A program made the position numbers and the translations under genes. DNA of 42,236 nucleotides from a virus. The notes below the pieces were generated by a model that saw only the letters and a program-made list of their open reading frames with translations, had not been told where the DNA came from and did not search any database. Location: UHGV virus genome UHGV-1360403, one strand, 5' to 3'. Shown piece by piece: positions 707 through 41,292 of this stretch. Each line of letters begins with the position of its first letter. Position 1 is the stretch's first letter.

Positions 707-1624
707 TTATAATAGTGCTGTTACTATTGCATCTTTAAAAATATTTTCTTCTTCATTTATTAAAGGTGATGACAGATGAATAATTACTTCTTTTCCTGTC
801 AATACTATTTGCTCGACTTGAAATCCTGCGTTGTGTAGTCTTTGGCGTAACTTTTCTAGTGCTGATTTTGATATACTAAATCCTTCACTCCTTATAGTAT
901 AACTGGCAACTCCATTTTTAATAATATCTACAGAGTTGTCAATTTCCTGCTGCGAGTAATTTTTCGGTGAGTCGAAAAATCTGGATTTTGTCGTTGCTGT
1001 TGCCCTAAGAGATATCAATAATGATTTGATATCTTTAATCTCAGATGCCAGATACTCAGTTTCTGATACTTCTTTCTGGTCTAGTTGTGCAACTTTGAAA
1101 GTGCCAAAATGTTTGAGGAATGTTGTGTATTCAGGATCAGTTACTGACTTTAAATATGTTTCTTTTATCTTGCTCGCAAGTCTTTCTTTGAATAAATTGA
1201 TTGATTGGTATCTTAAATCCGAAGGGTACTCTAAATGTTCAATTGATGAAATGTCAAAGCTATAAGGAGTGCGCTCGTCCTTAATAATTACGGTCGGTTT
1301 GTCAAATGCGAGACGCATTCCTAATTCAAACATTACATTAGCGTTTCGAGCACTTATATCGCAAACAACTATGGGGTTTTCATAAAGATTTTGAACAATT
1401 CGTTTTTGTATTACTGCAACATCATCATCTGAACTTACCAAATTTGCCTTGAATCCGGCATCATTTGATGCTTCACAAATAATGTCATGAACATTTCTCC
1501 AATGTCCAGTGGGATAACCTTCTATGTCCGCAATTGGCATAATAATGCCGCATATATGAGGTGGCATATTTTTGTTGTCTTTTACATCATCTTGGTTTAT
1601 TTCTTTCGTTTGTTGCTTAGCCAT
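707..1624 (-). CDS. AT-rich cargo protein (305 aa) with N-terminal TIR-like / nucleoside 2-deoxyribosyltransferase-like Rossmann domain; C-terminal domain unknown
   Basis: Markedly AT-rich relative to flanking genes; motif PIVVCDISARNANVMFELGMRLAFDKPTVII parallels ARQNVVLEMGMLLSSLGRSNVAIL in the 2354..3115 protein. Confidence 0.6.
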   Translation of the reverse strand: MAKQQTKEINQDDVKDNKNMPPHICGIIMPIADIEGYPTGHWRNVHDIICEASNDAGFKANLVSSDDDVAVIQKRIVQNLYENPIVVCDISARNANVMFELGMRLAFDKPTVIIKDERTPYSFDISSIEHLEYPSDLRYQSINLFKERLASKIKETYLKSVTDPEYTTFLKHFGTFKVAQLDQKEVSETEYLASEIKDIKSLLISLRATATTKSRFFDSPKNYSQQEIDNSVDIIKNGVASYTIRSEGFSISKSALEKLRQRLHNAGFQVEQIVLTGKEVIIHLSSPLINEEENIFKDAIVTALL

Positions 1625-2353: not shown

Positions 2354-3115
2354 TTACGAGGAAGCGTTAGCTATTTGAGCTTGTGTAAATTCGAAACCAG
2401 AATTTTGTAACCGTTGCACTAGACGAGGAACTGTTTCACGTACATGGTCGTTGAAATTCAGATACAAAATCCCGTTAGCATCAGAAGGCTGTTCTAGGTG
2501 CTGTTTCTGAAGGATTGCTACATTGCTGCGCCCTAAGGACGAAAGAAGCATACCCATCTCGAGTACAACGTTCTGTCTTGCGCGGGGTTGGATTTCTGCT
2601 TCACCGGCGCGCTTTGAGTATCCCATATCATCAGGTGTCAAAAGAACAATCCCGAAACGAGTAGCAGTTTGTCCTTGCCCAATTTCACGTTCAAGCTCTT
2701 CAATAATGGTGAGTCCAGTCCCTCCCGTATTCTGCAAAATGAAATGGTCTGGTAATCCAAGTTTATGAAGGATTAGCTCAAGTTGTTCCTTTGCAGTATG
2801 GTCATGGCCGTGAACAATGAATATCTTTTTGGGAAGCTCAGATGGCTGTTCTACGGCTAGTGGTGTTGCCGTGGGGGGCGTTCCTAAATGGGACATTATT
2901 GCAGTTTCAACATTGGGACGTTCTTGAGGGTTCCCTTGAAACTGAATGGTCCGGGTGGTGTAAAGGTTAACAATTACGCCATTCGTTAAACGATAGCAGT
3001 CATAAGTCTCACGCTGTTCGTGGGAAAAATTGGTGAACCCACACTCCCTCAAAAAGTCAGGAAAAGATTCTCTCGGGTATGGATAGTTGATCGGCATTTC
3101 AGTTAGTTCCTGCAT
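2354..3115 (-). CDS. TIR-like domain protein (253 aa): novel ~100-aa N-terminal domain plus C-terminal TIR-like nucleotide-binding domain
   Basis: KIFIVHGHD...GIVLLTPDDMG...ARQNVVLEMGMLLSSLGRSNVAIL matches the 'predicted nucleotide-binding protein containing TIR-like domain' pattern; own terminator downstream; lower G+C than PolA by eye. Confidence 0.65.
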   Translation of the reverse strand: MQELTEMPINYPYPRESFPDFLRECGFTNFSHEQRETYDCYRLTNGVIVNLYTTRTIQFQGNPQERPNVETAIMSHLGTPPTATPLAVEQPSELPKKIFIVHGHDHTAKEQLELILHKLGLPDHFILQNTGGTGLTIIEELEREIGQGQTATRFGIVLLTPDDMGYSKRAGEAEIQPRARQNVVLEMGMLLSSLGRSNVAILQKQHLEQPSDANGILYLNFNDHVRETVPRLVQRLQNSGFEFTQAQIANASS

Positions 3116-3179: not shown

Positions 3180-5243
3180 TCAATCTTTTTTGTAGTGGTA
3201 CGCCTCAAAGCCGCCAGCGTTCAGCGGAATATCGGGTGCCCATTCGGGGTTAGTGGAGAGAAGCGCGGAAAGCGCTTTATCGTTGAAATCTTCTGTGTCT
3301 GGTGCTTCGGTGATCACCTCGTCGTGTACCGTTAGCACAATGCTGTAACCGGCACCCTCGATCAGCGGCATGTTTCTGGCTAGAACGTCGCGGGCGGCCG
3401 CCTGGGTGACGTTCTCCACCAGCTTTCCGCCGTAGGTTTTGAGTCGTTGCCATTTACGCGAATAAGAGTTAACACCCATGTAGGTGATATTCCCTTGTTC
3501 GATAACCGGAGACGGGTAGCATACAGCGCGTCCGGATGGTAGCTGTATGCGCAGCCACGCGCCATCACGTCGGATTTTAAGATAGCCGCAATACAATGTT
3601 TTTTGCGGTGTGGCGATTGCTGTGCGGACAGTGCGCTCCAGCTCGTACCAGAAATCGCAGGTCGCCGGGTGCGCCCTGCGCCACAGGCGCTTGAGCGAGT
3701 CACATGCGATGAATACACGCTCGGACAGGCCAAAGGTCGACTTACGCTTAACCGATTCGTCGTACCAGCTTTTTGCCTCGCGGATAACATCGCGGGGAAT
3801 GTTTGGCAGTGCGGCGTTCGCCAGCTCGTCGAGATCGAGACCGTAAACCAGAGCAAAAGTGATGAAAGCCGATACACCACCTCCATAACCCAGACCGAGT
3901 TCCATGACTTTACCGATCTGACGCATGTGTTTATCAACATCATCTGGTGCAATATCGAAAGCTTTTGCATACGCCAGTTTATATAAGTCCGGACCCGTTC
4001 CAGCGTCATACTCTCTGAATGCATTCAGTTTCCATTCTTCTCCCGCCAGCCATGCCAGCATACGGCCTTCAATGTTTGACAAGTCACTTACCACTAGTTT
4101 TTTGCCTGTTGGCGCGATAATGCAGCCACGTAACGCTGAACTGGTTAGTTCCATGATATTGTCAAACAGCAGGTCTGCACATCCGGCTTTCAGTGCTTCG
4201 ATGCCTTCGTCTATTTGTTCCTGTTTTAGTGAAGGGCGGGGAAGGTTCTGGGGCTGGAATAGCCGTCCGGCCCAACGACCGGTACGTGACGCCCCGCAGA
4301 ACTGTAGCGTACCGCGTAAGCGCCCGTCGTGGCTTACGCCTTTCATCAGTGCCTTGTATTTACTGGTGCTGGTAGTACTGGCTTGCAGGCGGATAGCCAG
4401 CAGTTCTTTCACGGCAGATGATAAATCGGGGTCGGCCATACGACGTTCCAGGGTACTGCGTTGCATGTCTGGTAGCTCCACACCGTAGGATTCAACGATG
4501 TGCTTAATCAACGCGTCCCGTTGTGTGGCTGCCTGCACTTCGCCATCAGTCATTTCCTGTGTACGCTTTGCCAGGCGCTTTTGCTCCTGGTCTACCGCTT
4601 CGATCGCAGCGCGCGCGAGTTGCATGTCCATGCAGACGCCCCGGTCGTTGATCTGCTGATCACGATGCCAGAGCGCCAGCTCTGTCCCCTGATAATTCCA
4701 CTTCGGCAGACGTTTATAGACTTCACGCATTGCTTCGATATCCAGTCCGGCGTAAGCAACAAAGCGCCGCCATTCTTCCGGATGGGTTTTACTGGTGGCC
4801 CGACGCAGTTTGCTGTTTTTCGGACGTGGCTTACAGAACAGCTGGATCAGCGCTTTACCTTCTTTGTCCTTCGCTTTGTCTTGCGGGACGCCTAGTACTT
4901 CGCAGAGTTCCCCCAGAGACCCCGGGAGACCGTGCGCCAGCGCCTGCACCATCGTGTCGCGCCAACGTTCGACTGGCGGTGCCAGTCGCGGCATTGCATA
5001 ACGCAGAACGGTGCGGTCGAAGTGAGAGTTATGGAAATAAAGCAGGGTTTCAGGGTCTGCGATTGCTTCGTATAAGCCGTGTGGAATACCACCACCGGCA
5101 GTGATATCCCACACGTTTACTGGCCCGTCGTTGATAGCCCATGCGAAAAGCATCACTTCAACGCCTTCGGCATACGCATGGGTACCGTTCGTAATAGGGA
5201 TTTCGCAATAGGTTTCCAGGTCGCCCCATAGTATATTGGACAT
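3180..5243 (-). CDS. Family A DNA polymerase (PolA-like, with 3'-5' exonuclease region)
   Basis: 687 aa; N-terminal exonuclease-like region and C-terminal polymerase region (...[14 protein letters not shown]..., ...[11 protein letters not shown]...). Confidence 0.85.
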
Positions 5244-5289
5244 GTGTTTACCTAGGTTTTTATTCTATTAACTGATTAAAAGATTAATT

Positions 5290-5919
5290 ATGCATATGAT
5301 CCAATACTTGATTGACCATACAGAGCATCTGGAGAAAATAGCTGGATATATTTTTTCATGTTTGATTGTTATGGGAGTCTGGATAAGAAAGATCATTTTT
5401 AATTATAAGTATAAAGAGCCTAAATATGTCAAGAAGTTAATTTTATATTTAATTAAGTATGAACGTTATCTGGATAAGGAGGATAAGAAAGCCATAGAAA
5501 AAAGAATAAATGATAAAATTATTCGTGATGCGCTGAAATTGCAATCCTCTTATAACCGAAGAGATGTTATTTACATTTGCAATAGATTAGAAAAAAGACA
5601 GTATATAAATCAGTTGATTAAGCTTCAGAATTATATAGAGAAAGATAACGGAGTGTTTTTTATTAATGTTGATTTTTCAGGTTTTTTATTTATTATTAGT
5701 CGTCTGTTTTCCTTTCTGTGTTTTGTGCTGTTTACCCTTTTTTCTATTATCTGCATTATTTCCATAGGGCAAAATGAAGGCCTTTTAAATTATCTTGTGT
5801 ATATGGTTATGATAATAGTTTTAGAGACTGTTGGTTTTTGGATGTATGATACTTTCCCGTCTAAGAAAAAGATCTGTGAACTAAATAAAGAATTGAGAAA
5901 GATTAAGATTCCTGAGTGA
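5290..5919 (+). CDS. AT-rich Lys-rich membrane protein (209 aa, about 3 predicted TM helices), opposite strand to the replication operon
   Basis: Very AT-rich ORF; hydrophobic stretches IAGYIFSCLIVMGVWI, FLFIISRLFSFLCFVLFTLFSIICIISI, LVYMVMIIVLETVGFWMY. Confidence 0.6.
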   Translation: MHMIQYLIDHTEHLEKIAGYIFSCLIVMGVWIRKIIFNYKYKEPKYVKKLILYLIKYERYLDKEDKKAIEKRINDKIIRDALKLQSSYNRRDVIYICNRLEKRQYINQLIKLQNYIEKDNGVFFINVDFSGFLFIISRLFSFLCFVLFTLFSIICIISIGQNEGLLNYLVYMVMIIVLETVGFWMYDTFPSKKKICELNKELRKIKIPE

Positions 5920-5937
5920 TTATACGCCTAATCAGTA

Positions 5938-5956
5938 GCCCGGTGTTTAACCGGGC
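5938..5956. terminator. Hairpin between convergent genes (possible bidirectional terminator)
   Basis: GCCCGG-TGTTTAA-CCGGGC inverted repeat; no clear T-tract. Confidence 0.3.
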
Positions 5957-5971
5957 GTCTATGAAGTAGGG

Positions 5972-6520
5972 TTAAATTAGTGCTTCAGCATCAGCACCTT
6001 CGCTGATATCGTCGAAATCGTCAGCGCTTGCCACTCCGCCGCCAGCGAATGCATCGCCGTCTCGCAGGAACTGGACTCCGCCGAGTGAGGCATTAATGCG
6101 TTTACCGAAATTATTGTCCTGTGCCCAGATATCGATAACGGCGTTTACATAGCACCCTGCATAAGGACGTCCGTCAGCCTGAATAAGTGGCGAACGATCG
6201 CGATCAAGAACAGCTGGGCGCGCTTTGTTAGCAGCATTCAGGAAGAAATTGCCGGGGAAGCCTTCATACTCTGCTTTTTCATCACCATCATGCAGGCACA
6301 GATTGAGTTTTTTCTCCAGCTGGTTATAAATGGGCTCCCACTTCTCTCCCCATTTTTCCTTCGCTACCTGCTTCATAGCTTTACGGATTTCTTCCAGTTG
6401 TGGGTGTTTGGGAGACATTAAAAATACTGCGGAGAAACGCGGATCGCCTTCGCCGTTTACAGTTTTAGCTTCAAACAGAGACGGGAAGGCCAGACGAACA
6501 TTGTTCAGCTTCAGTTTCAT
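5972..6520 (-). CDS. DUF2815-like phage ssDNA-binding protein
   Basis: N-terminus MKLKLNNVRLAFPSLFEAK and acidic C-terminal tail (DDFDDISEGADAEALI), typical of this replication-module family. Confidence 0.75.
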   Translation of the reverse strand: MKLKLNNVRLAFPSLFEAKTVNGEGDPRFSAVFLMSPKHPQLEEIRKAMKQVAKEKWGEKWEPIYNQLEKKLNLCLHDGDEKAEYEGFPGNFFLNAANKARPAVLDRDRSPLIQADGRPYAGCYVNAVIDIWAQDNNFGKRINASLGGVQFLRDGDAFAGGGVASADDFDDISEGADAEALI

Positions 6521-6535
6521 GGGTATTTCCTTAAA

Positions 6536-7837
6536 TCAGATGAGGTCTGCGGTTAGCGTATCGTCGGATACGTCGTCGAAATCATTTACAGGGTTGATAT
6601 TGAGTGCGGGGCGTGGGTCTGACTCGGGAACGACGGTTGGTTTACCATCAGCTCGTGTTATCAGTGCCTCGACTTTTGACCAACGGCGTGGACTGGCCTT
6701 TTTGATAAGTTTTTCGGCTTTTGTGGGACTAATAAGTTTAAAGTCGAATACTTCTTCAGTTTTGTACCTGAACTGGTCCTTCAGAAGTGCGCGAGCTGCC
6801 TCTTCATCACTCCAGGCCCGGTTACCTTGTTTTCCTGTTACCAGTTTAAACCCCGGTACCGGATGTCCGGCATTGAGTTCATTGTGAACCCGGTCCCGTA
6901 CTGCCTTTAGCCAGGACTCAATAAAGTCGGCCTGGCTATAGATCTCCGCAAGCTGCTCAATGGTTAACAGAGGTACACGTGCGCTGGCATTGGTGATTAT
7001 TTCGCTGACAGGCTTTGTCAGATCTTCAAAGTCGCTGGCCGCTGTTTGTAAATGCTGCATTTTCTGGGCAGTGCAAATAGCTTTTGCTTTACAGAAGCGG
7101 CACTGCTTTTCTCCAGGTATGAAGTTTTCCAGCGGTAGTGTCTCAATGCCTTCGCATTCAGCAATATTGAGAACAAGGATCGCACTGGTTGCGGCCTCCT
7201 GTGCTCGTTTACCGAAAGACTGAAGTTCCTGCACGGTTAACGACCATTCTGAAACGTGGTTGAGCCTTGGCTGGTGAATAAATAATCTTACAGTCTCAAA
7301 GTCATACAGCATGCTGAATTGTTCGAGAGCACCCAGAGCATACAGTTGTAGTTGCTCATTTTGTTCTGCATCAATGCGGACGCCTTTGCCATATTTCAGG
7401 TCGTGGATTTGTAATTCGCTACCAGCGATGATTATGCCGTCGGCAGTTCCGAAAGATTCTTCCACACCCGTTATATGTGAGAAATCAACACGTTGTTCAA
7501 CCAATAGTTCATTATTCTGTGCAAGAGTCCAGACCGTATCAACATACCGGCCAACGGCTTCGACCATTTCATCATCCACCTGTGGGCCAGATGTATCATC
7601 AGGATTTTCGCGAAGGGGGTATGAGCCGAGAAACATAGAAACATTGCATCCGGCGTAGTGTTCCGGGTGGCTTTGCCTGTTTCGTAGAACTTTTTCAGCA
7701 AGCGCGTGCGCTGCAGTGCCCTCGATTGCAAAAGTTGTTTCTTTATCCGGTTGTGTGGCCTCCAGCGCCAGACTTCCTGGGCAGCGCATCCATCGATGCG
7801 CTGATGATGGAGAAAGTTGTGCATGAACGTCTGGCAT
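6536..7837 (-). CDS. DUF2800-like PD-(D/E)xK nuclease (Cas4-like, C-terminal Cys cluster)
   Basis: [16 protein letters not shown]-terminal signature; C-terminal [10 protein letters not shown] cysteine cluster. Confidence 0.75.
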
Positions 7838-37691: not shown

Positions 37692-38006
37692 ATGCTTATT
37701 GGCTATGTACGTGTGTCAACAAATGACCAGAACACAGATCTACAACGTAATGCGCTGAACTGTGCAGGATGCGAGCTGTTTTTTGAAGACAAGATAAGCG
37801 GTACAAAGTCCGAAAGGCCGGGACTGAAAAAACTGCTCAGGACATTATCGGCAGGTGACACTCTGGTTGTCTGGAAGCTGGATCGGCTGGGGCGCAGTGT
37901 GCGGCATCTTGTCGTGCTGGTGGAGGAGTTGTGCGAACAAGGTGTTAATTTTAGTAGTTATGTTATTACAGGTGGGGGATTTCTCCCCCTTATGCAGATT
38001 TTCTAG
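37692..38006 (+). pseudogene. Serine DNA invertase (Gin/Hin/Pin/Cin family), 3'-truncated
   Basis: MLIGYVRVSTNDQNTDLQRNAL...DTLVVWKLDRLGRS...GVNF matches the catalytic domain of Gin-type invertases; similarity stops near 37952 and the ORF ends after an unrelated 17-aa tail; no C-terminal HTH. Confidence 0.75.
37974..37989. repeat. Short GC hairpin at the junction between the invertase remnant and the low-GC island
   Basis: GGGGGA-TTTC-TCCCCC. Confidence 0.4.
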
Positions 38007-38010
38007 TTAA

Positions 38011-38856
38011 CTATTGGCGAAGTGGCCATATTTTTCTGTTTTTTAAAAAACTATCTTCAACTATATAACTGCAACAATGTTCACTAAGGCCATAAAAACT
38101 AATTATTCCATATTTATGAGAAGCTATATCAGACAGTTCTGCTAATACTGTGGCAAGCCAACGAGCGATGCTAAGAGAATAGAATCTTCCCCACTTTTGA
38201 ACAATGGTATTTTGTCCAGTACGGATGGAGGCTGATATAAGGTCTTGCATAATGTTGGTACTTTCATTCATATACATGACCGTTGTATACGGTGAAAGAG
38301 TGGCATTGATAAACCTAGCATTTTCTTCAACACGTCTTTGTTCAACTGTATAATAATAATGTTTTTCAAGGATACTCTCGGCTACTTCTCCCCACCATTT
38401 ATTAATAGGTTCATTATTGGTTAAATTGGGGCTGCTTAATGAGGAGAAATTTGCGTAACGTCCCCGTCGGGCATCAGCAAAGGAATCTAAACATTCAAGT
38501 ATTTTGTAGGTAATTTTATGTGTAGGACGTGAATATCTCAGAGATAGTTGCATTTTTTTAGAAATACTATCAACCTCGTTGGTTAATTCAATGAGCTTAT
38601 GTCCAAATTTTCTTACAATATTCTCATCAGGCATTTTCCCTTTGTGTTCAATGGCATAGTGTGCAACAAGTATTAGTTTAGCAAGTCTCTCAAAACCTAC
38701 AGAAAGCCCAAAAAATGCTGTGTAATATTCACCTATTTTGTCTGCATAATTGGCTTTACCTATGGCTGTTGCCCCAGAACCAATGAGCTGTGTAACTAAA
38801 GATGCTTCTCGGCCCAGAGCGTGCCATGCTGGAATATCCCAGGGATTTTTATTCAC
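38011..38856 (-). CDS. AT-rich cargo protein (281 aa), function unknown
   Basis: Long AT-rich ORF in an AT-rich block that interrupts the invertase; R-x5-H (RYSRPTH) noted but not diagnostic. Confidence 0.55.
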   Translation of the reverse strand: MNKNPWDIPAWHALGREASLVTQLIGSGATAIGKANYADKIGEYYTAFFGLSVGFERLAKLILVAHYAIEHKGKMPDENIVRKFGHKLIELTNEVDSISKKMQLSLRYSRPTHKITYKILECLDSFADARRGRYANFSSLSSPNLTNNEPINKWWGEVAESILEKHYYYTVEQRRVEENARFINATLSPYTTVMYMNESTNIMQDLISASIRTGQNTIVQKWGRFYSLSIARWLATVLAELSDIASHKYGIISFYGLSEHCCSYIVEDSFLKNRKIWPLRQ

Positions 38857-38984
38857 TTTATTATTTTCCTTTGCTCATAAATTTAAATTGTTTGAGTATC
38901 TCATAAAATATAAGGAGATGGTTAAGGTTGTTGATCGCATATAATAGCTATTGAAAGTCAAGAACTCGGTTTTATGTTCTACCA

Positions 38985-39023
38985 CTAATTAATATATTGT
39001 GAGTTTGACAATATATTAATTAG
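38985..39023. repeat. Perfect 16-bp inverted repeat with 7-bp spacer
   Basis: CTAATTAATATATTGT-gagtttg-ACAATATATTAATTAG. Confidence 0.6.
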
Positions 39024-39157
39024 TATGATCAAACCAGCCATCAACTGATTCCTTGTATCTTTCAGAGTCTCCAGAACAAAAGCCTTAACGAATTCCTTAT
39101 TTGTGAGTGCCTTACCAAAAGCCCATTGTTGCAGGGAACGAGTATAAAACTCGCCAG

Positions 39158-39424
39158 CTACTGGAGCAGGCTACCTGATTGTCGATCGATTCCTGCGTCC
39201 ATATAGTCGATGGTCTTCTGGAGCTCTTCGATTAGGGCAATAGCTTTTGCTCGAGAAATGCATATTAGTTGATCCGGAAATTCTTGTAAGGGCCAGTTTG
39301 GTATACAGGCCATGTTATCAGTGAAGGATGCAGACAAGTAAACTTCATTGGTAACTAGGGAATAGCTTACCTCAAAATTGGTGAGTTCCGGCAAACTGCT
39401 AACGTTTGATTCTTTTCTGCGCAT
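39158..39424 (-). CDS. Hypothetical protein (88 aa) in the AT-rich island
   Basis: ORF only; no recognisable motif. Confidence 0.35.
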   Translation of the reverse strand: MRRKESNVSSLPELTNFEVSYSLVTNEVYLSASFTDNMACIPNWPLQEFPDQLICISRAKAIALIEELQKTIDYMDAGIDRQSGSLLQ

Positions 39425-39568
39425 AATATTATCCAGGACTGTAATTATGTACAGTTAATGGTCTTCAATTTCGAAGAGGGAGTCAAGGGGGAGTCTCAAA
39501 TGAACCTTTATAGAAAGGGGAGCTCTTTGTGTTGCTGAACGTATGCAAAATTTTTTTGCACCATAAAT

Positions 39569-39592
39569 TCAATAACACATTCAATAACACAT
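39569..39592. repeat. Tandem 12-bp direct repeat in an AT-rich non-coding region (candidate attP arm site)
   Basis: TCAATAACACAT x2; adjacent GCAAAATTTTTTTGC near-palindrome at 39545-39559. Confidence 0.45.
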
Positions 39593-39894
39593 TACTGCAT
39601 CACCATGAAAATAAATGTATTTTTATTTAATTTCACACATATCACAATTAATACAGCGTTTAGTAATTAGTAAAGACATTTCAATGAATTACCGTTAAAT
39701 CATTTTAAAAATCAGTAAGTTGTATCGAGTTTGTATGCTTTACTGTCATTAACTTACTGTATGTTGATCCAGTGTATTTAACCTTGATAAACTCAGTCCA
39801 GTAACACAAAGCCGCAACACATTGCATTTTGTCCCGTAGAAAAGACTTGTATGTGTGTGCTTGTTTTCTGCGCCTACGCAGATAAGGATTGAGA

Positions 39895-41292
39895 ATGCCG
39901 CGCACTGTAACACATAATCCGGATAGCCCCAATAATGACGATGTTTTAGCCGCATCTGAAAAATGGGACGCCTGTAAACCCCCCTATACCAGCGCACACA
40001 TGAAAATCTGTGTTGCTGCCGCCAAAATCATCCTCGCTGCTTCCGGCGTGGCTCGCCGTTCCAAATACGAAAAAGAGAACTATCTCCGTATCGATTTCAG
40101 CAAAGCCGGTAAGGTTACATTTTACGCCGAGTTTCCAAAAAAGATGGGCCTCAAAGGTAAAAAGCTCGGCGAGTGGCCGGAGCTCGCTATCCAGCTGGCG
40201 CGCGAAAAAGCGCTAGGTATGGCTGACGGTGGCCTGCGGGCAGAGTCCGTACATGCAGCGCTGGAAATGTACCGGGATGACCTCAAAGCCAAAGTCGCCC
40301 GGCAGAAGCTGAGCCCGGACAGTTTCACAACCTACGGGGTGCGTATCGACCGGATTAAAGCAACGTTCGGCGAGCGCGAGGTGTTCAGCGACGTAACATA
40401 CAATCGGCTGGTGGAAGTGCTGGACGAGTGGATCGCTACTCGCTCGAACAATAACGCCCTGGAGTTGTTTGCCGAGCTCCGTCGGTTCTGGAAGTTCTGC
40501 GCACCTACTCTTTGCAACGGCCGCAATGTTGCCGCCAGTCTGCCAGATGATTATGTTTCCTCCCGCGTACAGAAACCTACCCCCACACGGCTTTTTACCG
40601 ATATTGAATCAATCGCCCGACTCTGGCTCAATGTTGCTGCCTGCACCTCTGTACACCAGAAGAATGCTGTTCGCTTCATGATCATCACTGGTGTTCGTCC
40701 GATTAATGTCCATAACCTGCGCTGGGACTACGTTCACGAGGAGGCTGGTGAAATTGTTTATCCGGAAGGGGTTATCGGCATGCGAGGGGCTATGAAAACA
40801 CAAAAGGCTTTCCGCCTGCCGATAACCCCTGAGATCCGGCGGATTATCGACGAGCAGAAAGCCTGGCGTGATTCAGTTCCTGAGTGCAACAGGGATTATG
40901 TATTTTTGCAGCCACGTGATCCAATGCAGCCATTTTCAAAACGATCACTGGATAAGCTGGTGAAAACATACAGCCCGGACGGGGCTGTAAAAGGAATAAA
41001 ACATGATGGGACTGTTAAAGGGAAAGACGGTGCATTTAATACGATGTGCCGTAAATTCCTTAAGAGCAATGTTATTGCCTTGATGAAGGAAAGAGGCTAT
41101 TCCCGCTCAGACCGAAGGGAAATCAGCCTCCTTTGCCTTCACCACTCCAGCAAGTCAGATGACCCGATGGCAGAACATTACGACTTTTCTGATGAGATTT
41201 TACAGGAAGAGATTGCGTTGAAGCGCGAAGCTTTCGAGGCTCACGAGCGGAGCATACTTGCGCAGGTGGCATTGCTACGGCGGCGAGGTTAA
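39895..41292 (+). CDS. int: Tyrosine integrase (P4/CP4-like family)
   Basis: Catalytic-domain pattern ...IITGVRP... (box I Arg), ...MKTQKAFRLP..., ...LLCLHHSSKSDDPMAEHY (His and catalytic Tyr); ATG at 39895 with AAGGA 7 nt upstream. Confidence 0.8.
   Translation: MPRTVTHNPDSPNNDDVLAASEKWDACKPPYTSAHMKICVAAAKIILAASGVARRSKYEKENYLRIDFSKAGKVTFYAEFPKKMGLKGKKLGEWPELAIQLAREKALGMADGGLRAESVHAALEMYRDDLKAKVARQKLSPDSFTTYGVRIDRIKATFGEREVFSDVTYNRLVEVLDEWIATRSNNNALELFAELRRFWKFCAPTLCNGRNVAASLPDDYVSSRVQKPTPTRLFTDIESIARLWLNVAACTSVHQKNAVRFMIITGVRPINVHNLRWDYVHEEAGEIVYPEGVIGMRGAMKTQKAFRLPITPEIRRIIDEQKAWRDSVPECNRDYVFLQPRDPMQPFSKRSLDKLVKTYSPDGAVKGIKHDGTVKGKDGAFNTMCRKFLKSNVIALMKERGYSRSDRREISLLCLHHSSKSDDPMAEHYDFSDEILQEEIALKREAFEAHERSILAQVALLRRRG

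Follow-up and report, generated by a model that had tools for sequence, protein, structure and literature searches.

An exchangeable AT-rich cassette in a temperate Escherichia coli myophage: a putative inner-membrane moron protein with a possible anti-phage role

Described membrane morons and the gene between PolA and SSB

The inner-membrane protein SieA of phage P22 (162-164 amino acids (aa), three predicted transmembrane helices (TMs), conserved cytoplasmic C-terminal motif FxRYPxEAxxFNK) is alone sufficient to block DNA injection, and exists as three types that are <30% identical (PMC10883804). In P2-like phages, the gpS-gpV region (orf30 in P2) is one of three classical moron regions, a site for AT-rich, non-essential genes to which no function has been assigned (PMC6823313). 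Here, an AT-rich gene for a 209-aa protein was analysed in the virus genome UHGV-1360403, of which the whole 42,236-nucleotide (nt) stretch is referred to as the window; positions follow the window numbering, unless another locus (L number) is named. The gene lies in a cassette between the genes of a family A DNA polymerase (PolA) and a single-stranded DNA-binding protein (SSB), and is very probably an accessory membrane-protein moron. Its product was tentatively read as an inner-membrane protein that acts against phages, by exclusion or by abortive infection, with a probability of roughly 0.45.

The open reading frame (ORF) at 5290..5919 (plus strand, ATG start) encodes a predicted inner-membrane protein of the phrog_10579 family (RefSeq WP_000551014 / WP_000551021). 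A second in-frame ATG is present at 5296, and homologues align starting at residue 1-3. An internal start at Met28, where the PHROG profile begins, was rejected because homologues keep residues 1-27. The stop-free run at the ORF was 215 codons long; in shuffles of the island 5244-5971 (n=2000), it averaged 62 codons and never exceeded 146, and the ORF is beyond chance for such AT-rich DNA. The GC content was 0.287 for the gene, 0.298 for the island and 0.491 for the whole window, and the two 400-nt bins over the gene (0.295 and 0.323) were the lowest of all such bins in the window. An earlier note on this DNA had called the AT-richness of the gene extreme for the genome, and these values bear it out.

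The PolA gene (3180..5243, minus strand, Pfam model match) diverges from the cassette, and the SSB gene (5972..6520, minus strand, match to the Enc34 ssDNA-binding / DUF2815 model) converges on it. The location of a plus-strand gene between minus-strand PolA and ssDNA-binding genes, as first described, was thus confirmed by the ORF and the Pfam models; the span given at that time (5244-5960) corresponds to the ORF plus an upstream spacer and a hairpin. The variable cassette itself (5244..5971, 728 bp, plus strand, GC 0.298) takes up exactly what lies between the PolA start codon and the SSB stop codon, neither codon included. A 4.7-kb query (3180-7837 of the window) was 100% identical to the E. 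coli phage records vB_EcoM-606R2, -611R5 and -689R2, and the window also matched E. coli chromosomal prophages adjoining yfhL/shoB. The host phage of the cassette is a temperate E. coli myophage with its own holin, endolysin and Rz genes.

Cassette exchange, retention and distribution

The presence or absence of the gene in related phages, a check that the earlier note had proposed, was scored in 5426 complete E. coli genomes, 159 of which carried the PolA/SSB backbone at ~98% identity. The slot bounded by the PolA ATG and the SSB stop codon held the 209-aa gene in 67 of the 159 and other cargo elsewhere, as follows: a 199-aa plus-strand protein of the same architecture (13/159), a minus-strand Nmad5 gene paired with a plus-strand gene for either an unrelated 89-aa protein with two TMs (32/159) or a 229-aa soluble protein (27/159), and BRO-N or HNH genes (a few genomes). 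Taken together, unrelated plus-strand genes filled the slot in 59 of the 159 backbone genomes. When four related E. coli prophages were compared, identity in the flanks was ~98%, and all the DNA that separates the PolA ATG and the SSB stop was replaced; the cassette boundaries were exactly these two codons in every case examined, with at least four alternative cargos. Because unrelated cargo replaces the cassette in near-identical prophages, the status of the 209-aa gene as an accessory, horizontally exchanged gene outside the replication machinery is supported by the sequence comparison, and 5244-5971 is, on the same basis, a self-contained accessory cassette (moron) in a recombination hotspot.

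The 199-aa protein (WP_032314218) occupies the same place in the same orientation and is a remote homologue of the 209-aa protein (hhalign probability 96.5%, E 7e-10, 18% identity over 190 columns, end to end). Two alleles that are 18% identical in one slot constitute a natural experiment on specificity. The 67 genomes carrying the 209-aa gene, out of the 5426 sampled, include enterotoxigenic E. coli (ETEC) H10407 (ETEC_RS14995) and O55:H7 CB9615 (G2583_RS16095).

All the 11 E. coli alleles sampled were intact and of equal length. The ratio of nonsynonymous to synonymous polymorphism (pN/pS) between the two main E. coli allele clades was 0.24-0.38, a value calculated from few substitutions, and the corresponding ratio of substitution rates (dN/dS) was 0.17-0.19 for the P2-type alleles and 0.07 for the Xenorhabdus orthologues (82% aa identity, 140 substitutions). 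Judged by its sequence evolution, the 209-aa protein is functional and under purifying selection. In ETEC H10407 (L028, NC_017633.1, 2703-9676), PolA is frameshifted and the SNF2 helicase gene has an internal stop, and the intact 209-aa gene beside them suggests that it was kept while the phage decayed.

A word-indexed search of 5.8 billion proteins returned three clusters, and scanning 1.84 billion representatives exhaustively with HMMER gave about ten 50%-identity clusters, to which a profile search added the Xenorhabdus members; the genome scan for the family was run with a 4-sequence alignment. All family members belong to the Enterobacterales (Escherichia, Serratia, Rahnella/Rouxiella and Xenorhabdus). 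The exact window protein is present on 986 contigs, and no phage record with a homologue was found beyond the three near-identical vB_EcoM phages. The GC content of family members was 0.28-0.34, with one at 0.40, in host flanks of 0.40-0.55; the smallest gap was at L030 (0.40 vs 0.46). The gene is always solo, with no conserved partner gene across its contexts.

Relatives recur in a known moron slot and next to defence genes. In P2-like prophages (five loci), homologues with 38% identity occupy the gpS-gpV interval, the same slot as that of the orf30-slot morons; the ORFs described there measure 261 bp for P2 orf30 and 741 bp for the R18C occupant (PMC6823313), and the likeness drawn here to the 209-aa family is one of slot. 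In Serratia sp. Ag1 (L006, 5916-6630 and 6805-11592; a decayed prophage), a 44%-identical copy lies in an integrase-bounded region, where its neighbours are Septu-like PtuA/PtuB and the S subunit of a type I restriction-modification system. Directly upstream of this homologue, ~35 nt of the PolA 5' end are left (encoding MPNILW.DLE); the Serratia copy therefore traces back to one and the same PolA|X junction, in a prophage that later decayed. A 26%-identical relative was found directly upstream of the antiterminator Q gene of a lambdoid prophage, with a GAPS4-type PD-(D/E)XK protein, a methylase plus HNH and an HD-domain protein as neighbours.

Other relatives were found near an integrase, beside a DUF1367 gene (one case), and at the edge of a mobile region with HicA, Tad2-like and Tn3 genes (one case). 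On an unrelated metagenomic phage contig (L032, 4536-5192), a 28%-identical relative is reversed between RecT and a PAPS reductase in a minus-strand early operon, an arrangement that repeats that of the window. The relative in several Xenorhabdus species is a solo chromosomal gene, syntenic upstream of thrS-infC-rpmI-rplT (copies L023, L024 and L026; 8001-8639 / 1150-1788; GC 0.30 vs 0.40). As a separate observation at L006, an AT-rich gene for a DUF6338 membrane protein is located nearby (4805-5404).

Predicted architecture and proposed function

The 209-aa protein is, by prediction, a small three-helix inner-membrane protein. About three hydrophobic helices had been ascribed to it earlier, and the Kyte-Doolittle peaks and the AlphaFold2 model (10-sequence alignment, predicted local distance difference test score (pLDDT) of 77) agree on TM1, TM2 and TM3, of which TM1 is the weaker. 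All segments are given on the plus strand. The N-terminal 16 residues (5290..5337, net charge -2) are predicted to be periplasmic from the charge count across the family and the positive-inside rule, and are followed by TM1 (residues ~17-37, 5338..5400, Kyte-Doolittle peak 1.7, AlphaFold2 helix 11-37). A basic helical domain (residues ~38-128, 5401..5673, +22/-13), modelled as four helices plus a beta-hairpin and predicted to be cytoplasmic, carries the conserved motifs INDEIMRD, NRxxLIYIxNxLEKxxYIN and LQNYIExxNGxFFI. TM2 (129-159) and TM3 (166-186) are separated by a 6-residue loop, predicted to be periplasmic (5674..5847, Kyte-Doolittle up to 2.85); the corresponding AlphaFold2 helices are 132-160 and 165-188, and a short C-terminal helix follows. 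The basic C-terminal tail, which ends with the stop codon (5848..5919), is predicted to be cytoplasmic and has the conserved pattern FPxxxxIxxINxELxKxKxP, with N199 and L202 invariant in the family alignment. Two charged residues, the basic R138 in TM2 and the acidic E179 in TM3, are mostly conserved in the family alignments.

The N-terminal stub ranges from neutral to acidic over the family, most members having a net charge of -2 there, and the central segment is strongly basic. Three members have a neutral or slightly acidic C-terminal tail, and most have a basic one. From this charge pattern and the positive-inside rule, we infer an N-out/C-in topology with nearly all the non-membrane mass in the cytoplasm and ~22 residues predicted to face the periplasm. 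The protein contains 11% lysine (23 residues), so its earlier description as Lys-rich holds; as the amino acids of AT-rich codons dominate the composition (F+L+I+N+K+Y = 56% of residues), this richness is partly a by-product of base composition. No fold match was obtained for the 209-aa protein, and a PDB profile search for a winged helix (PadR/Rex-like) in residues 40-128 found nothing.

Upstream of the gene, a candidate sigma-70 promoter (5237..5266, plus strand) consists of a -35 element (TGGACA) overlapping the PolA start codon, an 18-nt spacer and a -10 element (TATTCT), with a consensus match of 9/12 in AT-rich DNA. The hairpin previously placed between the gene and its convergent neighbour is exact at 5938-5956 (GCCCGGT-GTTTA-ACCGGGC, 7-bp stem, 5-nt loop); it is GC-rich, stands between the convergent stop codons and is part of the cassette, not of the backbone. 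Its folding z-scores against shuffles were -2.5 (plus strand) and -3.9 (minus strand), and Rfam returned no RNA family in the region at E <= 1. A different GC-rich hairpin is found by the SSB stop in the alternative cassettes L001 and L004, and in L002 this place is taken by a longer inverted repeat.

A side observation concerns the other end of two alternative cassettes, L001 (2445-2830), with the unrelated 89-aa two-TM protein, and L004 (2445-3195), with the unrelated 229-aa soluble one: directly after the PolA ATG, both have a similar ~30-nt leader, AAAATAnCCT...TATATGGTTA...AAGGAGAC. This common leader hints at a shared module of promoter plus ribosome-binding site that would drive exchangeable cargo.

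Among the described systems, P22 SieA offers the closest parallel. Like SieA, the 209-aa protein is the product of a single small prophage moron gene, with diverged alleles in one locus and three TMs (predicted, in the case of the 209-aa protein); the predicted succession of a short acidic N-terminus, TM1, a basic cytoplasmic segment, TM2 and TM3 as a hairpin, and a basic cytoplasmic tail, conserved and with an "NK(E)" core, is likewise common to both. The two differ in the cytoplasmic segment, which is ~90 aa long with its own conserved motifs, compared with ~50 aa in SieA, and in the slot, which is a myovirus replication module here and the immI region in P22. The 209-aa protein may work like SieA, by analogy, and is not a demonstrable member of the SieA family. 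It does belong to an uncharacterised family of a familiar kind, that of small prophage-encoded inner-membrane accessory proteins.

The earlier note had read the gene as one for a membrane protein of the exclusion or abortive-infection type, a reasonable view that is supported in part. The membrane-protein part stands, owing to the helices, and the accessory, exchanged status is well supported by the cassette swapping and the moron and defence contexts; the exclusion or abortive-infection part is drawn from analogy and location. An anti-phage function of some kind has about an even chance on these grounds, and an injection block specifically is a doubtful proposal. In the proposed mechanism, the gene would probably be transcribed on its own in the lysogen; as it faces away from the repressor-silenced early-left operon, expression in the lysogen would be possible without the lytic genes. 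The protein would then most likely protect the lysogen against other phages. The first choice is that it would interfere with genome delivery across the inner membrane, as SieA does in P22, and the second choice is a one-protein sensor and membrane-disrupting abortive-infection effector. If the protein is an exclusion or abortive-infection factor, an unannotated single-gene family would be added to the prophage defence repertoire.

Alternative roles and points against an anti-phage function

Class I holins (lambda S type) have three TM helices, an N-out/C-in topology and a basic cytoplasmic C-terminal tail, and the predicted layout of the 209-aa protein recalls all three features. It might be an abortive-infection effector proper, a conceivable but minority explanation: the cytoplasmic domain would sense a phage product, the TM2-TM3 hairpin with its Arg/Glu pair would oligomerise and depolarise the membrane in a holin-like manner, and the infected cell would die ahead of the completion of the phage cycle. 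With only ~22 residues predicted on the periplasmic side, little surface is offered to an incoming tail; the most strongly conserved motifs are in the cytoplasmic domain, the charges within TM2 and TM3 are mostly conserved, and Septu-like, GAPS4-like and TIR genes adjoin family members. Unlike class I holins, the 209-aa protein has a 90-aa cytoplasmic domain between TM1 and TM2, and its gene is located outside the lysis cassette, with copies in chromosomes without phage. The beginning of the protein (M-H-M) superficially resembles the lambda S dual start, a likeness that was rejected, the double Met not being conserved in homologues. No similarity to known abortive-infection or effector models was found with PADLOC, and the stable chromosomal copies are under strong purifying selection with no sign of toxicity. 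SieA is equally mostly cytoplasmic, yet blocks injection (PMC10883804), so topology cannot separate exclusion from abortive infection.

Several results weigh against an anti-phage function, whether by exclusion or by abortive infection. The 209-aa protein matched no Pfam family, no PADLOC family at E <= 1 (PADLOC-DB v2) and a single PHROG, phrog_10579, for which no function is annotated; the topology was derived from Kyte-Doolittle hydropathy and AlphaFold2 helices, and TM1 is marginal. The slot also houses the non-defence cargo Nmad5, BRO-N and HNH, so that location alone is no proof of defence. Regarding expression signals, five promoter-like sites were counted in the region where shuffles give 3.4 (sd 1.8), which is not above chance, and no T-run is found beside the hairpin 5938-5956 on either strand, nor did the terminator scan score any; without a U-tract, its label as a terminator is unproven. 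Homology to SieA (phrog_7745; PF26849 in the precomputed annotation) is not supported: hhalign of the family profile against a SieA profile built from 9 sequences gave E 0.22 and a probability of 0.3% over 17 tail columns, where FGRYPGE--ANGFNKEFIK was aligned with YDTFPSKKKICELNKELRK as the sole, non-significant stretch. The same family profile against the single P22 SieA sequence gave E 0.29, and the PHROG scan returned neither a phrog_7745 match to the 209-aa protein nor a cross-hit. Finally, the Xenorhabdus copies by thrS are syntenic and vertically inherited with no recognisable prophage and a dN/dS of 0.07.

These Xenorhabdus copies could point to a housekeeping-like role in the membrane, and a host-directed accessory role is judged well below an even chance. 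Such a role could be the modulation of an inner-membrane transporter or of a stress response, a part in colonisation, or the timing of the phage's own lysogeny or lysis, and it fits with the lack of a defence-model match in PADLOC and with the non-defence cargo that shares the slot. Most copies, on the other hand, are located in prophage moron slots or in islands beside defence genes, the occurrence of two alleles 18% identical at one locus is a pattern more typical of arms-race genes, and no enzymatic or transporter domain was found. If the protein is not anti-phage, the Xenorhabdus chromosomal copies would point to a membrane function borrowed by phages.

Searches of further annotation and of the literature were in keeping with an uncharacterised family. 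NCBIfam gave only far sub-threshold matches to Rex and RbsU, no annotated PHROG exclusion family matched the 209-aa protein, and the L002 remote homologue had no PADLOC match at E <= 0.01. No paper was found that names the phages, their accessions, the protein accessions or phrog_10579, searches for expression data on the gene found none, and those on DUF2800/DUF2815 and PDC-S35 turned up nothing relevant. A bolder form of the anti-phage reading, which is speculative, is that these proteins would be a new family of single-gene, membrane-embedded anti-phage proteins, combining a novel cytoplasmic sensor with a TM hairpin, diversifying at fixed hotspots in several unrelated types of prophage and domesticated by bacteria, as in Xenorhabdus. 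They would act either as all-in-one sensor/effectors or by an injection block with a mechanism unlike that of SieA, Imm or gp15.

A role in phage replication is unlikely. The location of the gene inside the replication module, from PolA to SSB, and that of one relative between RecT and PAPS reductase would suit a part in the lytic or replication programme, for example as a replisome membrane anchor needed for efficient growth. Such a part has very little probability: the gene points the opposite way to the operon, 92 of the 159 ~98%-identical prophages lack it (79 of them without any family member), P2-like phages carry relatives in late-gene slots and bacteria carry them in their chromosomes, and the gene is intact where PolA is frameshifted (ETEC H10407).

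One gene away from the 209-aa gene, a TIR-domain protein of 253 aa (2354-3115, minus strand) matched PADLOC PDC-S35 (E 1e-108) and Pfam CAP12-PCTIR_TIR. A two-gene system, in which the 209-aa membrane protein would be the effector or partner of this TIR protein, is essentially excluded: TIR-plus-TM systems do occur at phage hotspots and the PDC-S35-matching protein sits close by, but co-occurrence is not conserved, the TIR gene being absent from four IMG/VR loci with the 209-aa gene (L008, L014-L016), from five E. coli genomes (ETEC H10407, 2011C-4251, P4, B-JRPT-4119 and CB9615) and from any other context of relatives, and PDC-S35 is catalogued as a single-gene candidate; the 209-aa gene is found without the TIR gene and therefore has no TIR partner.

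PolA and VRR-NUC flank a second variable slot, which in the window holds the TIR gene and for which the alternatives are an ANR regulator with DUF4406, a plus-strand ATP-binding protein, and YfbU with a hypothetical protein; the 209-aa gene co-occurs with each of the four second-slot gene sets. PolA|SSB and PolA|VRR-NUC are thus two neighbouring cargo hotspots in a common E. coli prophage type, and could be mined for accessory genes.

Two further AT-rich parts of the window were recorded. Between the helicase and VRR-NUC genes, a 305-aa ORF (707-1624, minus strand) lies in a stretch with a GC content of ~0.35; it had no Pfam match and a weak match to the PADLOC TIR effector model PDLC00733 (E 1e-6), and may be a second TIR-like accessory gene. 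A 2-kb AT-rich block (38001-40000, GC 0.36-0.39) adjoins the integrase gene (39889-41292, plus strand) and contains two minus-strand ORFs with no Pfam or PADLOC match (38011-38856, 281 aa; 39158-39424, 88 aa), which are probably further morons near the attachment site.

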